Made by a program: the position numbers and the translations under genes
Notes under the pieces: generated by a model
The model's input: only the letters and a program-made list of their open reading frames with translations
Told to the model about the DNA's origin: nothing
The model's database searches: none
From: a virus
Taxonomy: Duplodnaviria; Heunggongvirae; Uroviricota; Caudoviricetes
Strand: one strand, 5' to 3'
Length of the DNA: 35,093 bases
Virus record (IMG/VR): IMGVR_UViG_2529293015_000001
Shown: positions 4,958 to 29,568 of the stretch, piece after piece
Position numbering within the stretch: the stretch's first letter is position 1
How the letters are laid out: the number at the start of each line of letters is the position of its first letter

Positions 4958-5094
4958 TGTTTGAGTCTTATATAGCAGAACGTCTTCGCCACCGCTGGAT
5001 GCGCCTGCGCTTATATCGTTTCCCCGGTTCTGTTTTGACCGATTACCGGATACTGAAGAATTACGCCAAAACACTGAAAGGAGCTGCCGCATGA
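4954..5094 (+). CDS. ylcG: YlcG-like small protein (46 aa)
   Basis: ATG 4954 overlaps rusA stop; stop overlaps Q start (ATGA); [23 protein letters not shown]...; same position as ylcG between rusA and Q in DLP12; below the 60-aa ORF-track cutoff. Confidence 0.45.
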
Positions 5095-5798
5095 ATACCC
5101 AATATTTACAGTATGTCCGCGAGCAACTCATTGTGGCTACCGCTGATTTGAGCGGAGCAACGAAAGGCCAGCTTGAAGCCTGGCTGGAGCATGCACAATT
5201 TGATACTGGTACATATAAACGAAAGAAGCCGCGCATTCTGGATGAGGTAACGGGCAAGACGATTACGCTGGATAATCCGCCGATCCCGGGAAAACAATCG
5301 CTGGCGAAAGGCTCATCAATTGCCCTGGTCAGCCCGGTTGAGTTTTCGACATCATCATGGCGGCGGGCGGTTCTGTCTCTTGAAGAACATCATAAAGTCT
5401 GGTTGTTGTGGTGTTATGGCGGAAACATTTACTGGGAGCATCAGATCGCGATAACGCAGTGGGCATGGAACGAGTTTAAGGCTCTGTTAGGTACAAGAAA
5501 AATTGCCAGTAAAACACTGGAACGCTTAAAGAAGTTGATCTGGCTGGCTGCACAGGATGTGAAGAACGAACTGGCCGGGCGTAAGACCTATGAATACCAG
5601 GCGCTGGCGGCGCTGCTTGGTGTGGCTAAATCCACTTGGACGGGGACTTATCTTCCCTACTGGTTGATGATGTGGGATGTATATGTCCGTCTGGATAACG
5701 AAGCATTGTGTCATGCGTCCCTGACTCGTTCGCAACAGAGGTCGACAAACTACCATCAAAATATTGCAAAAACGAACCGGAATCGCTATATTTTATGA
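5091..5798 (+). CDS. Late-gene antiterminator Q-like protein
   Basis: 235 aa; SD AAAGGAG 8 nt upstream; sits after rusA/ylcG and before the lysis cassette, the canonical Q slot; resembles long Qin/phage-82-type Q rather than lambda Q or 127-aa DLP12 QuuD. Confidence 0.55.
   Translation: MNTQYLQYVREQLIVATADLSGATKGQLEAWLEHAQFDTGTYKRKKPRILDEVTGKTITLDNPPIPGKQSLAKGSSIALVSPVEFSTSSWRRAVLSLEEHHKVWLLWCYGGNIYWEHQIAITQWAWNEFKALLGTRKIASKTLERLKKLIWLAAQDVKNELAGRKTYEYQALAALLGVAKSTWTGTYLPYWLMMWDVYVRLDNEALCHASLTRSQQRSTNYHQNIAKTNRNRYIL
5764..5792 (+). promoter_or_regulatory. Candidate sigma70 late promoter (pR'-like), possibly with qut site
   Basis: TTGCAA (5764-5769), 17-bp spacer, TATATT (5787-5792), overlapping the last Q codons. 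Confidence 0.35.
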
Positions 5799-5847: not shown

Positions 5848-5878
5848 CCCCAAGGAGCTACTCCTTGGGGTTTTTATT
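5848..5878 (+). terminator. Strong intrinsic terminator, candidate tR' ending a ~75-nt leader RNA
   Basis: Perfect 10-bp stem CCCCAAGGAG/CTCCTTGGGG with loop CTA followed by TTTTTATTTATT. Confidence 0.6.
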
Positions 5879-6036
5879 TATTATTGCAACGACATTTATA
5901 ATACCGTTGCTTTATTGTAACGGTGTTCCCTGCTGTAGCCTTATTTTTTTGTGGGTTTTTTCTTGCTGAAGTTTGGCAAAGTGAACTTTGTATGCATATA
6001 CTTCATCCAAATATTCAGTAATATCAGGTGGATGAT

Positions 6037-6771
6037 ATGGCAATTACATGTTCAGTTATATTGGTTCTGGAGTCGTTTGATGTGCCTTTGGGAAAGAATA
6101 GAGTGTTTCTGGAAAAAGGCTCATCTGTACTTGTTGACTATGGAACCAGAGATTTTTTTCTGACATATCCGGAAAGAGTTATAGTAGCGGATTTTGGTGG
6201 TGAATTTATTAGCCGCTATTTGAAAGCTAATAATCTAAGGGGTTTTTCTGATTGTAGGGAATATCCATCTTATATAAAAACAAATTTTGCTGATTTCAGT
6301 CTAATTAAGGGGTTAATTAGTTGGGCTAATCACTGCACTGAATACATTGAAGTTTTAGATGAGTCTATTGCATTTACATGCCTATCCGCATTTGCGTCGG
6401 AAAAACAATTTACAATATTCCTGTTTGGATGTCTGAAAAGTGTAGGGGCTAAAGTTAAAGCGATTATTCATACGGATATGTCTGCACCCTGGCGTCTTAA
6501 AGATATATCTTCAAGATTATATCTCAGCGAAAGTTTGCTAAAGAGGAAATTGAGAGAAGAAGGTCTGTCATTCAGTAAAATTATACTTGATGAGAGGATG
6601 CGGATGGCTGAATATTTACTCAGCACTCGTTGCTATTCTATTCGCAAAGTAGCCGAGGTCTGTGGTTATGTAAGTGTCTCGTACTTTGTTCATGTATTTA
6701 GATGTTATTTTGGTATTTCTCCAAACCAGTATTCACAGAAGAACTCAGAAAGTGAGATTATCACTCACTAG
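6037..6771 (+). CDS. AraC-family transcriptional regulator of the AppY/YdeO/GadX-like subfamily; moron
   Basis: C-terminal twin helix-turn-helix typical of AraC/XylS (…IRKVAEVCGYVSVSYFVHVFRCYFGISPNQY); N-terminus M-x3-CSV parallels the appY-like ORF at 34362; AT-rich island; ATG 6037 with AGGTG upstream (GTG 6028 alternative). Confidence 0.75.
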   Translation: MAITCSVILVLESFDVPLGKNRVFLEKGSSVLVDYGTRDFFLTYPERVIVADFGGEFISRYLKANNLRGFSDCREYPSYIKTNFADFSLIKGLISWANHCTEYIEVLDESIAFTCLSAFASEKQFTIFLFGCLKSVGAKVKAIIHTDMSAPWRLKDISSRLYLSESLLKRKLREEGLSFSKIILDERMRMAEYLLSTRCYSIRKVAEVCGYVSVSYFVHVFRCYFGISPNQYSQKNSESEIITH

Positions 6772-6951
6772 AGCGGCTGTACGGTCTGCTGCTGATAGCT
6801 TTTACGGACCGTAGTAATACACCCAGAATGGACGCCAGCATTATTGCTGGTTTTTTGTAAAGTAAATCCGACAATTTCTTTAGCTATTTTATCTTCCTTT
6901 CTTTTTATCTTCGGTCTGATTATGCCATCCGTTCTGTACGGAGGTGAGGCT

Positions 6952-7167
6952 ATGAAATCCATGGACAAGTTAACAACGGGGGTCGCTTATGGCACATCTG
7001 CGGGTAATGCAGGTTTTTGGGCATTACAGCTACTTGATAAAGTGACCCCATCGCAGTGGGCTGCAATAGGTGTGCTGGGTAGTCTGATATTTGGTTTGCT
7101 GACGTACCTGACAAACCTGTATTTCAAGATAAAAGAGGACCGTCGCAAGGCGGCGCGGGGAGAGTAA
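6952..7167 (+). CDS. essD: Phage-21-type pinholin (S21/EssD family), dual-start
   Basis: 71 aa; [26 protein letters not shown]...[14 protein letters not shown] close to recalled S21; MKSM dual start typical of antiholin/holin pair; SD GGAGGTG; the 6844 ORF-track start is an upstream extension. Confidence 0.8.
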
Positions 7168-7171
7168 TTCA

Positions 7172-7516
7172 ATGATTAAAAGCTATGAGTTGATTGTGAA
7201 AGGGATCCGCAATTTTGAGAATAAAGTTGCGGTAACTGTAGCATTACGGGACAAAAAACGCTTTGACGGTGAAATTTTTGACCTGGACATCTCGCTGGAC
7301 CGTGTTGAAGGTGCCGCGCTGGAGTTTTATGAGGCAGCAGCCAGAAGGAGCATCAGACAGGTCTTCCTGGATGTTGCTGCCGGGTTATGTGAAGGGGATG
7401 AGCAGTCGCCGGAAAAGCGCCCCGTAATTTTAGAGGCGCAGAATGTGTGGATAACCTACAAAGGAAAGCTACCAGGAAGAATTACTGGTTCCCTGAAGAC
7501 TCCACCGAAATGGTAA
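7172..7516 (+). CDS. Hypothetical 114-aa protein between holin and endolysin; possibly YdfR-like (DUF1327)
   Basis: ATG 5 nt after holin stop; same position as ydfR between essQ and rrrQ in prophage Qin; family assignment from memory only. Confidence 0.4.
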   Translation: MIKSYELIVKGIRNFENKVAVTVALRDKKRFDGEIFDLDISLDRVEGAALEFYEAAARRSIRQVFLDVAAGLCEGDEQSPEKRPVILEAQNVWITYKGKLPGRITGSLKTPPKW

Positions 7517-7754
7517 TTTTACCAGCATATTTTTCTTCCAGTAATGCCGCCAGCCACTTAAAAGAATTTTGTTGTTCCTGGGACCATTTGGGGTTGCGTG
7601 ATTCAAGCAGGAGCGATGCCAGTGTTGGTTGCATTTGTTCTCTGGGAATTGATAAGGCCAGATATGAAAATGCAACAGTGAGGGCATTTACATCATCCCG
7701 AAGCCTGGAAATGCAGTCGAGCAACTCCTGTAGAGAAATGGTGTTATTGTCCAT
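7482..7754 (-). CDS. Hypothetical 90-aa protein, antisense to the late operon, convergent with and overlapping the previous ORF
   Basis: ATG (rc of 7752-7754) preceded by a strong SD AAGAGGA with 6-nt spacing; protein-like composition; no family recognised. Confidence 0.35.
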   Translation of the reverse strand: MDNNTISLQELLDCISRLRDDVNALTVAFSYLALSIPREQMQPTLASLLLESRNPKWSQEQQNSFKWLAALLEEKYAGKITISVESSGNQ

Positions 7755-7859
7755 AAATAATCCTCTTGATTGTATTTACCTTTTCCCCGCCTGATTCAAC
7801 AGGCCGGGGCAGATAAACATATCCAGGGTTCAGAAACCGATAAATCCTGATAAATATCC

Positions 7860-8393
7860 ATGAACGCAAAAATCAAATACGGCCTGTCAGCGGCCGTTCT
7901 GGCGCTGATTGGAGCAGGCGCATCTGCTCCTGAGATACTTGACCAGTTTCTGGATGAAAAAGAGGGTAACCACACTACGGCATACCGCGATGGTTCCGGC
8001 ATATGGACCATCTGCCGCGGTGCCACGATAGTAGATGGTAAACCTGTTATTCCGGGCATGACACTGACGAAGGAAAAATGCGTTCAGGTTAATGCCATTG
8101 AGCGTGATAAGGCGCTGGCATGGGTGGATCGCAATATTAAAGTAACACTGACCGAACCACAAAAAGCGGGTATCGCGTCATTTTGTCCCTATAACATTGG
8201 CCCCGGTAAGTGTTTTCCGTCGACGTTTTATAAGCGGCTGAATGCCGGTGATCGTAAGGGTGCATGCGAGGCGATTCGCTGGTGGATAAAAGATGGTGGG
8301 CGCGATTGCCGCATACGTTCAAATAACTGCTATGGACAGGTTATTCGCCGTGACCAGGAAAGCGCATTAGCCTGTTGGGGGATAGATCAGTGA
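7860..8393 (+). CDS. rrrD: SAR endolysin, lysozyme (GH24-like) with N-terminal signal-arrest-release domain
   Basis: 177 aa; [45 protein letters not shown]... recalled as near-identical to DLP12 RrrD; hydrophobic Gly/Ala-rich N-terminus fits a SAR domain and the pinholin partner. Confidence 0.85.
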
Positions 8394-8882: not shown

Positions 8883-9176
8883 TTATTGTGAGCAATACAC
8901 ACGCGCTTCCAGCGGAGTATAAATGCCTAAAGTAATAAAACCGAGCAATCCATTTACGAATGTTTGCTGGGTTTCTGTTTTAACAACATTTTCTGCGCCG
9001 CCACAAATTTTGGCTGCATCAACAGTTTTCTCCTGTCCAATTCCCGAAACGAAGAAGTGATGGGTGATGGTTTCCTTTGGTGTTACTGCTGTCGGTTTGT
9101 TTCCAACAGTAAACGTCTGTTGAGCACATCCTGTAATAAGCATTGCCAGAGCGGCAGAAAACAACATTTTTTTCAT
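8883..9176 (-). CDS. bor: Bor lipoprotein (serum-resistance, Iss family)
   Basis: 97 aa from MKKMLFSAALAMLITGCAQQ (lipobox ITGC); same place and orientation as lambda bor; ORF-track start 9224 is an upstream extension. Confidence 0.85.
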   Translation of the reverse strand: MKKMLFSAALAMLITGCAQQTFTVGNKPTAVTPKETITHHFFVSGIGQEKTVDAAKICGGAENVVKTETQQTFVNGLLGFITLGIYTPLEARVYCSQ

Positions 9177-9535
9177 CTTATTATCCTGCATTGTTAAAAA
9201 CGGCAGAATCCTATGTGACAACAATTAAACGATAGTTAAATGGATTGATGAAAATTAAAACTATATAGGTGGATGCTCAGCCTATTGGAGGAGGGGGGCA
9301 CTCAGAATCCTGTGGAATGAAATAAACCGCTCTTTCTGTCCATTACCCTTTTAGCTGCGCTGTATCGTCGCCGTATTCCCGCATTAACCATGACCGTAGC
9401 CCGACGGGGAATTCCTTCTGCGTGAGTGTGCGGGAATAATCAAAAACGATGCACACCGGGTTTTACTGTGCTGACAGACGCAGGGTTACCCTCATAGTCG
9501 CTTTTCCGGTGCGATGGTGGAAGAAACCGGGATGT

Positions 9536-28968: not shown

Positions 28969-29568
28969 ATGCGTAAATTATGTGCTGTTATTCTGTCCGC
29001 AGTAGTCTGGCTGGTTGCCGCTGGTACGCCAGCGAGCGCAGCAGAGCATCAGTCCACACTAAGCGCCGGGTATCTTCAGACCCATACTGATATGCCAGGC
29101 AGCGATGACCTGAAGGGCATTAATGTGAAATACCGTTATGAATTTACGGACACGCTGGGGCTGGTGACGTCATTCAGTTATGCCAATGCCAAAGATGAGC
29201 AAAAAACGCATTACAGCGATACCCGCTGGCATGAAGATTCAGTGCGTAACCGCTGGTTCAGCATGATGGCGGGGCCATCTGTACGCGTGAATGAATGGTT
29301 CAGTGCTTATGCGATGGCAGGTGTGGCTTACAGCCGTGTTTCGACGTTCTCCGGGGATTATCTCCGCGTAACTGACAGCAAGGGGAAAACGCACGATGTG
29401 CTGACCGGAAGTGATGACGATCGCCACAGCAACACGTCTCTGGCGTGGGGAGCTGGCGTGCAGTTTAACCCGACCGAATCCGTGGCCATTGATATTGCTT
29501 ATGAAGGCTCCGGCAGTGGCGACTGGCGCACTGACGGTTTCATCGTGGGTGTCGGTTATAAGTTCTGA
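28969..29568 (+). CDS. lom: Lom outer-membrane protein (Ail/Lom/PagC family)
   Basis: 199 aa; signal peptide ...AAGTPASAAEH; beta-barrel-like alternating pattern; C-terminal ...GVGYKF; SD GAGAGG. Confidence 0.8.
   Translation: MRKLCAVILSAVVWLVAAGTPASAAEHQSTLSAGYLQTHTDMPGSDDLKGINVKYRYEFTDTLGLVTSFSYANAKDEQKTHYSDTRWHEDSVRNRWFSMMAGPSVRVNEWFSAYAMAGVAYSRVSTFSGDYLRVTDSKGKTHDVLTGSDDDRHSNTSLAWGAGVQFNPTESVAIDIAYEGSGSGDWRTDGFIVGVGYKF

Follow-up and report, generated by a model that had tools for sequence, protein, structure and literature searches.

Introduction

The textbook example of an antisense gene near a lysis cassette is lambda bor, which lies just after Rz on the strand opposite to the late operon. 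It has its own promoter and, in the work of Barondess and Beckwith, was reportedly expressed in lysogens. In the Qin-type lysis cassette, essQ-ydfR-rrrQ-rzpQ, RefSeq annotations place a gene of the ydfR family between essQ and rrrQ. The YdfR protein of Escherichia coli K-12 emerged from a two-hybrid screen in a 2026 study, where its residues 1-72 sufficed for interaction with Rne (RNase E) 1-597 and Strep-YdfR co-purified Rne 1-598 together with DNase-resistant nucleic acid (PMC13232886). Here we examine a comparable locus in a tailed-phage sequence, IMG/VR record IMGVR_UViG_2529293015_000001, whose full 35,093 nucleotides we call the window. In it, a gap of 692 bp between a holin gene and a lysozyme gene holds two small genes, a ydfR-family gene encoding 114 amino acids (aa) on the plus strand (7172-7516) and a 90-aa gene on the minus strand (7482-7754).

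The gene order, and the holin, YdfR and lysozyme families, are the same as in the Qin-type cassette. The two small genes are convergent and their 3' ends overlap by 35 bp. A first-pass annotation made from the letters alone had described this pair between holin and endolysin, and its coordinates, the overlap, the Shine-Dalgarno (SD) sequence of the minus-strand gene (AAGAGGA, minus strand, 7767-7761) and the 6-nt spacing to the ATG were all confirmed. We consider it probable, with moderate confidence, that the segment consists of two independent things: a conserved accessory late gene, ydfR, and a cassette of ~300 bp that carries a bor-like moron.

Results

The minus-strand gene is under selection as protein

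The 90-aa minus-strand open reading frame (ORF) is a genuine protein-coding gene with selection on its protein sequence, because its frame is intact in 25 of 29 distinct alleles, its variable sites are biased by codon position and it has relatives at 28-56% identity. Two more alleles lack the last residue only. Outside the overlap with ydfR, variable sites number 17, 13 and 35 at codon positions 1, 2 and 3 (chi-square p = 0.0018), and the ratio of nonsynonymous to synonymous polymorphism (pN/pS) is 0.32, compared with 0.40 for ydfR, 0.106 for the holin gene (37 alleles) and 0.115 for the lysozyme gene. The start codon and the GAGGA core of the SD sequence are kept in every allele.

These polymorphism statistics have a mirror image. 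A 115-aa ORF on the plus strand (7447-7794) runs antisense to the 90-aa gene and shows the same coding signal (pN/pS = 0.25) because the wobble positions of the two frames coincide. It is stop codons that break the tie: they interrupt the plus-strand frame in 24 of the 29 alleles, leaving it intact in 5, and the minus-strand frame is therefore the conserved one. With those stops, and no match in PHROG, the plus-strand ORF was ruled out as a real gene. Such a shadow ORF mimics coding selection and is a trap for gene callers and for tests based on dN/dS, the ratio of nonsynonymous to synonymous substitution rates.

The product of the 90-aa gene has a mass of 10.2 kDa, an isoelectric point (pI) of 4.8 and no hydrophobic segment. 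It is thus acidic and predicted to be soluble; AlphaFold2 (AF2) gives four helices with a predicted local distance difference test (pLDDT) score of 70 and a disordered tail at residues 80-90. The protein matches phrog_2411 end to end (E 1e-56), a family that PHROG leaves without annotation. No credible match was found for the family among Pfam, NCBIfam, PADLOC and PDB-sequence profiles, and Foldseek against the PDB returned nothing below E = 1 for the model. PADLOC-DB gave no match for the 90-aa protein, its relatives or the 86-aa protein that takes its place in other loci (see below), with one marginal score, for the relative P0199 (E 0.005).

Close members of the family are restricted to Escherichia and Shigella. 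A profile search of 1.84 billion representative proteins recovered relatives of 81-97 aa at 28-56% identity with the common core ELL..I..LR..VN.L..AFSYLAF..P.E....TI.AL.FES.N, and judged by this similarity the family exists beyond Escherichia prophages too. Distant relatives lie between the lambda-like tail genes M and L (loci L169 and L176) and beside small ORFs and terminase genes (L174 and L175). On chromosomes they occur between an oxidoreductase gene and a P-type ATPase gene, between dinI and bssS, and beside an autotransporter gene; one more follows a gene for an Rnf/Nqr-like membrane protein in a short contig. An orientation bias is apparent: in all four of the phage-context loci (L169, L174, L175 and L176) the relative points against the neighbouring late genes. 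In four contexts (five loci) the distant relative again overlaps a small convergent ORF on the sense strand. These partner ORFs were considered as homologues of YdfR or of each other and rejected, as no similarity was found (all E > 0.1), and no YdfR homologue was present near the distant relatives in the loci examined. Since each family occurs without the other, we treat the 90-aa gene and ydfR as independent units.

The relative between dinI and bssS, P0199 (92 aa; L177:1-3279, and L178), lies in L177 ~1.7 kb downstream of rne, the gene for RNase E. In view of the RNase E connection of YdfR this proximity is striking, but it is probably a coincidence.

Varying contents of the interval from ydfR to the lysozyme gene

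Related loci, 160 in all, were drawn from IMG/VR, and the collinear ones were aligned. In these the stretch from ydfR codon ~112 (…SLKTPP) to a conserved leader of ~50 bp before the lysozyme gene is a slot whose contents vary. Slot type A, found here, carries the 90-aa gene on the minus strand within a mosaic cassette at 7508-7809, whose junctions are drawn from the alignment of related loci and from BLAST architecture. Type B holds ~35 bp only; its YdfR has 116 aa with the same C-terminus as here, and the lysozyme gene begins ~60 bp later. In type C (for example L133:1501-2260) the slot spans ~560 bp, YdfR is extended to 183 aa (phrog_2091), and a convergent, overlapping minus-strand gene of 86 aa (phrog_2572, likewise without annotation) is present, whose family shows in-frame indels only. 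Type D, the K-12-like version, has a 103-aa YdfR overlapping the lysozyme start and no minus-strand gene, and type E (for example L008:270-890) has a 206-aa YdfR fusion without the 90-aa gene. Types B, D and E thus have YdfR but lack the 90-aa gene. The idea that the 90-aa and 86-aa antisense genes are distant homologues was rejected by BLASTP and by hhalign profile comparison. A flank at 7811-7859, directly upstream of the lysozyme ATG, is common to types A, B and C; its minus strand contains a weak candidate for a sigma-70 promoter.

Insertion between genes that are adjacent in relatives, one of the marks of a moron, is seen directly, as 7508-7809 is replaced by ~35 bp in type B. The whole interval had initially been read as an intrusion into a cassette where the endolysin normally follows the holin closely. 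For the minus-strand gene this stands, since it sits on an inserted segment and type B YdfR almost abuts the lysozyme gene; for ydfR it does not, this gene being routine in such cassettes. The premise itself is limited to the phage 21/DLP12 subtype, because YdfR-family genes occur in the Qin-like prophage cassette examined here and in records of H-19B, BP-4795 and Stx1a phages.

Read on the minus strand, the left junction precedes the stop codon of the 90-aa ORF by 26 nt, so that the ORF closes (7482-7507, ~8 codons and the stop) within sequence antisense to the conserved 3' end of ydfR. The corresponding C-terminal tail is predicted to be disordered and is not conserved in the distant relatives. 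Because the junction leaves this tail inside the shared ydfR flank, the 35-bp overlap is most readily understood as a side effect of recombination at this junction and not as a regulatory design.

The ydfR-family gene

The 114-aa protein matches PF07041 (DUF1327) at 142.4 bits (cut-off 25; E 5e-42), with residues 1-112 aligned to positions 1-92 of the 93 in the profile, and falls in phrog_406/2091 in PHROG. Over residues 1-74 it shares 78% identity and 92% similarity with K-12 (Qin) YdfR, which bears out an earlier suggestion that it is YdfR-like; the C-termini are unrelated. The K-12-like arrangement in our set, L005 from E. coli ECDA1023, differs from the window in that its YdfR, of 103 aa, ends in an unrelated C-terminus and overlaps the lysozyme start, and in lacking a minus-strand gene; this YdfR agrees with the 103 aa and 309 bp of K-12 YdfR (PMC13232886). 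Across the family a constant N-terminal domain is joined to swappable C-termini, giving forms of 103, 114/116, 176/183 and 206 aa.

In the window the gene starts 4 nt after the holin stop codon, with an SD-like run, GGGGAGAG, within the holin 3' end. The family is present in 101 phage records, including H-19B, BP-4795, Stx2 phage 86 and many Stx1a phages, and a scan of the genome collection gave only 7 close, Escherichia-type loci. ydfR is thus an ordinary accessory late gene of lysis cassettes of the Qin/Stx1-phage type.

The AF2 model of YdfR is poor (pLDDT 51); in it, residues 5-74 form three strands followed by a long helix (beta-beta-beta-alpha). Foldseek against the PDB gave no match below E 0.06 for this poor model, and no fold is assigned; PADLOC-DB gave no match either. 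Residues 75-114 (7397-7516) are among the most conserved of the family, with many invariant positions, yet AF2 renders them disordered (pLDDT 28-38). This C-terminal segment of 40 residues may fold upon binding a partner. YdfR is basic (pI 8.7), in contrast to the 90-aa protein.

Expression signals around the minus-strand gene

The lysozyme-adjoining flank offers a weak candidate promoter on the minus strand, with -35 TTATCG (7843-7838), a 16-nt spacer and -10 TATGTT (7821-7816), a 7/12 match. Its predicted start, ~7809, is the 5' edge of an imperfect hairpin (7785-7809) that lies 55-31 nt upstream of the 90-aa gene. The -10-like box GGATATGTT is kept in 18 of 18 type-A and 5 of 5 type-C contexts, and the three empty type-B contexts all carry GGACAGGTT, where the -10-like box reads CAGGTT. 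It is suggestive that the box tracks the presence of antisense cargo, in alleles that are few and related. Another candidate, TTGAAT-19-TACAAT inside the cassette, was rejected; its -10 is GACAAT in most alleles and its start would remove the SD sequence.

The hairpin, noted in the first-pass annotation, is real, and its inner stem only is kept among alleles, one of which carries a compensated, better stem. The minus-strand RNA of 7745-7830 folds at -28 kcal/mol (z = -2.9) with part of the SD sequence paired, and the hairpin is probably the 5' end of the gene's mRNA leader. Rfam showed nothing relevant in this region of the window or at four related loci. The 90-aa gene has no terminator after it and so agrees only in part with the classical (Juhala/Hendrix) definition of a moron.

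Just upstream of the candidate promoter, in the 5' end of the lysozyme gene that codes for its signal-anchor-release (SAR)-like segment, lies a minus-strand terminator-like hairpin with a T-run (7879-7897). Its role could be to shield the slot from antisense transcripts arriving from bor, or it could simply be a consequence of the coding sequence.

Prevalence

Among 5426 complete E. coli genomes, the layout of holin, YdfR, minus-strand hypothetical protein and lysozyme was found at ≥80% query coverage in at least 1033, as annotated by the Prokaryotic Genome Annotation Pipeline (PGAP), and the cassette alone in 1136 (about one in five). E. coli O55:H7 CB9615, CFT073 and C8 carry the same minus-strand gene in the same place and with the same overlap, annotated as hypothetical; the cassette of strain C8 is 100% identical and that of CFT073 93% identical, and in both PGAP calls an opposite-strand hypothetical protein. 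In the collection searched, sequenced phage records such as Chlobot, phiSTEC1575-Stx2k and vB_EcoS-783R2 also contain it. As the cassette is present in 1136 of the 5426 genomes, the arrangement is not unusual, contrary to what was first supposed of an antisense gene in a lysis cassette, and the window itself supplies a precedent in bor.

Neighbouring genes

The upstream neighbour of ydfR is a class II (P21 S-type) holin gene (6952-7167, + strand; PF04971, E 4.5e-34) with a dual start, MKSM (M1 and M4). Downstream is the lysozyme gene (7860-8393, + strand; PF00959, E 6e-24), whose weakly hydrophobic N-terminus is SAR-like by reading of the sequence. Rz, with an embedded Rz1, and then minus-strand bor follow (PF03245, PF06085 and PF06291 matches). 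By these signatures, the PF04971 holin with dual start, the PF00959 lysozyme and Rz/Rz1, the cassette reads as a P21-type pinholin/SAR-endolysin cassette. bor (8883-9179, - strand; PF06291) is 1.1 kb downstream of the minus-strand gene, with a terminator-like site just after it (8824-8810), and lom (28969-29568, + strand; PF06316) is in the tail region. Both of these classical lambda morons, which are expressed from the prophage, are found in the same prophage.

The gene for the Q antiterminator lies upstream (5091-5798), followed by a tR'-like terminator at 5848-5870. Between Q/PR'-tR' and the lysis cassette is a gene for an AraC-family regulator (6028-6771, + strand; PF00165/PF12833) with a promoter-like site at 5973-6002 (10/12 match) and a terminator-like hairpin at 6834-6851, the whole region spanning 5973-6851. 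It is a classical moron in sense orientation. In Stx phages the same position holds stx.

A structured leader at other loci

Elsewhere in IMG/VR, in contigs other than the window, small ORFs of many kinds, some of them distant relatives of the 90-aa gene, are preceded by a conserved leader of ~70-110 nt (L169:1032-1178, L172:683-829, L174:2863-3009, L176:319-465 and ~30 more, such as L186, L290, L255 and L233). Its 5' part has an operator-like CTGAT-N5-ATCAG box, a -10-like TATGGT or TATGTT, UCAGCCC and an optional hairpin, and its 3' part, directly ahead of the SD sequence, is a hairpin whose loop, GGAUGGCUGAUUAAC, is invariant. The loop GGCUGA can pair with the upstream UCAGCC, a possible pseudoknot. 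In the alignment of the leader (A9) the stems covary: 95% of cells are paired (slid controls, 19-43%), and changes on both sides are seen at 10 of 19 pairs; Rfam 15 gave no match. There is one copy per locus, often beside very large tail genes, and relative to neighbouring large ORFs the unit is on the same strand in 12 cases and on the opposite strand in 102. The unit has the look of an antisense expression platform, so far undescribed, whose cargo can be exchanged.

Membership of the window's upstream region in this leader family was considered and is not supported: the GGAUGGCUGAUUAAC motif has no match in the window at ≤1 mismatch, and an nhmmer profile of 26 leaders gave no hit at 7755-7875. 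Pairwise similarity between the window's upstream region and the L169 leader is only suggestive.

Discussion

We propose a model in which the segment between holin and lysozyme holds two unconnected units. ydfR would probably be made late, from the Q-dependent transcript, because it starts 4 nt after the pinholin gene. From its similarity to K-12 YdfR we infer that the N-terminal domain of this allele binds RNase E, at the catalytic N-terminal half of the enzyme, and perhaps RNA as well; the most likely role of YdfR is to adjust RNA turnover late in infection, not to help disrupt the envelope. Separately, a cassette of ~300 bp would have entered the variable slot by recombination, landing between ydfR codon ~112 and the leader of the lysozyme gene and bringing a gene for a ~10-kDa acidic cytoplasmic protein, predicted to form four helices, that points against late transcription. 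This gene is probably transcribed from the weak promoter in the lysozyme-adjoining flank, with a 5' hairpin leader; it would be on in the lysogen and overridden by Q-modified late transcription upon induction, and binding to a protein of the host or the phage is the most likely mode of action of its product. The junction would have removed the gene's own end, so that translation continues ~8 codons into ydfR antisense and yields the disordered, non-conserved tail.

Several observations weigh against this model. A scan upstream of the 90-aa gene gave no sigma-70-like site above threshold, the candidate promoter is no more than a 7/12 match, and the alleles in which it correlates with cargo are few and related. 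Downstream of 7482 the minus strand showed no intrinsic terminator, and the ORF ends inside ydfR; nor did we find expression data for the 90-aa gene in the literature. Several alleles of the gene are shortened, which is expected in decaying prophages but would also fit weak selection. For YdfR, RNase E binding was shown for the K-12 protein only, whose C-terminus is unrelated, and overexpression of that protein altered few transcripts (PMC13232886). The structure model of YdfR is poor, at pLDDT 51, and structure searches were uninformative for both proteins: Foldseek, which the first-pass annotation had suggested for both, gave no informative PDB match.

It could be that the minus-strand unit acts mainly as RNA or through transcription itself, with antisense running from ~7809 through ydfR and the holin gene, either dampening leaky holin and YdfR expression in the lysogen or tuning lysis timing by collision with late transcription. 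Transcriptional interference and antisense pairing had been raised in the first-pass annotation, and the lack of a minus-strand terminator-like site downstream of the ORF leaves room for them, as does the convergent 35-bp overlap, which is real. Moreover, unrelated 90-aa and 86-aa genes share the slot, the orientation and the flank, so that orientation could matter more than cargo. Positive support is wanting, however, and what selection acts on is protein: the 90-aa sequence is under purifying selection and has distant protein homologues, and the 86-aa family shows in-frame indels only. The overlap falls within the ydfR flank common to these loci and resembles a scar of the junction, types B and D and the phage 21/DLP12-type cassettes have no antisense unit, and the candidate promoter is weak. 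We therefore judge an RNA-level role unlikely. Much the same holds for the view that the ORF is a decaying or silent remnant whose conservation reflects recent ancestry and hitch-hiking with the lysis cassette, which we also hold to be improbable. Truncated 90-aa versions are many in databases, the close family is confined to Escherichia/Shigella, there is neither a strong promoter nor a terminator, and a pN/pS of 0.32 indicates far weaker constraint than in the holin and lysozyme genes (0.11). Yet that value is similar to the 0.40 of ydfR, and a remnant would hardly keep its frame open in 25 of 29 alleles when an equally long shadow frame is broken in 24, its start codon and SD core in every allele, or its helical core in homologues at 28-56% identity.

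YdfR and the 90-aa protein might instead form a functional pair of a toxin-antitoxin-like kind, in which the acidic protein, expressed in the lysogen, would neutralise the basic, RNase E-binding YdfR until late transcription prevails. Adjacency and overlap of the two genes and their opposite charges (pI 8.7 and 4.8) would suit such a pair, and close homologues of the 90-aa protein (≥72% identity) lie beside ydfR wherever context is available in IMG/VR loci; even the distant relatives are convergent with an overlapping small sense-strand ORF in four contexts (five loci). However, those partner ORFs are unlike YdfR and unlike each other (all E > 0.1), and obligate co-occurrence is not seen, with type B carrying a YdfR of the same C-terminus without the 90-aa gene and distant 90-aa relatives lacking a nearby YdfR homologue. 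The cassette junction falls outside the conserved ydfR body. When K-12 YdfR was overexpressed alone, few transcripts changed, and growth arrest was reported for YegJ only (PMC13232886). We give this pairing little credence. The reading of two independent units, ydfR and a moron-bearing cassette, accordingly remains the one we prefer.

Going further, the ydfR-lysozyme slot could be a dedicated expression site, with a conserved minus-strand promoter in the flank common to the slot types and exchangeable small cargo (the 90-aa and 86-aa genes) whose products act in the lysogen. We offer this extension tentatively and think it doubtful. If it were true, the products could counter incoming phages or restrain the prophage's own YdfR or lysis genes, and the 90-aa family would be a new class of small prophage effectors, repeatedly inserting antisense into late operons.

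In a broader context, the layout is common and already annotated, it fits mosaic lambdoid genomes with morons in the late region, and little changes in how such genomes are viewed. Both ORFs are ordinary conserved components of this type of cassette, the very outcome that the first-pass annotation had named as counting against its reading, though neither has an established function and neither is known to act in lysis. Two leads are nonetheless of use. The RNase E connection of YdfR points to a possible modulator of RNA turnover right after the holin gene in prophages of many E. coli genomes, Stx1 phages among them. The 90-aa gene is a confirmed member of an as yet uncharacterised family, whose small proteins phages encode against the direction of their late genes, and, if expressed in lysogens, would be a candidate for a phenotype in exclusion, stress tolerance or RNA metabolism.

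Phage and host modulators of RNase E include T4 Srd, T7 gp0.7, phiKZ Dip, RraA/RraB and RapZ. T4 Srd, a small phage protein of lytic growth, binds the N-terminal half of RNase E. RapZ, like K-12 YdfR, binds the N-terminal catalytic half of the enzyme (PMC13232886). No sequence or fold similarity was found between YdfR and any of these proteins, and we put YdfR forward as a possible functional analogue of the phage RNase E modulators, with no claim to family membership. For the minus-strand gene, the closest comparison is lambda bor. The two differ in that Bor is an exported lipoprotein whose gene is followed here by the terminator-like site at 8824-8810, whereas the 90-aa gene runs into its neighbour, lacks a terminator, has only a weak candidate promoter and encodes a predicted cytoplasmic protein. 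Like bor, however, it is a small accessory gene of the late region, placed near the lysis genes on the opposite strand and absent from collinear relatives.

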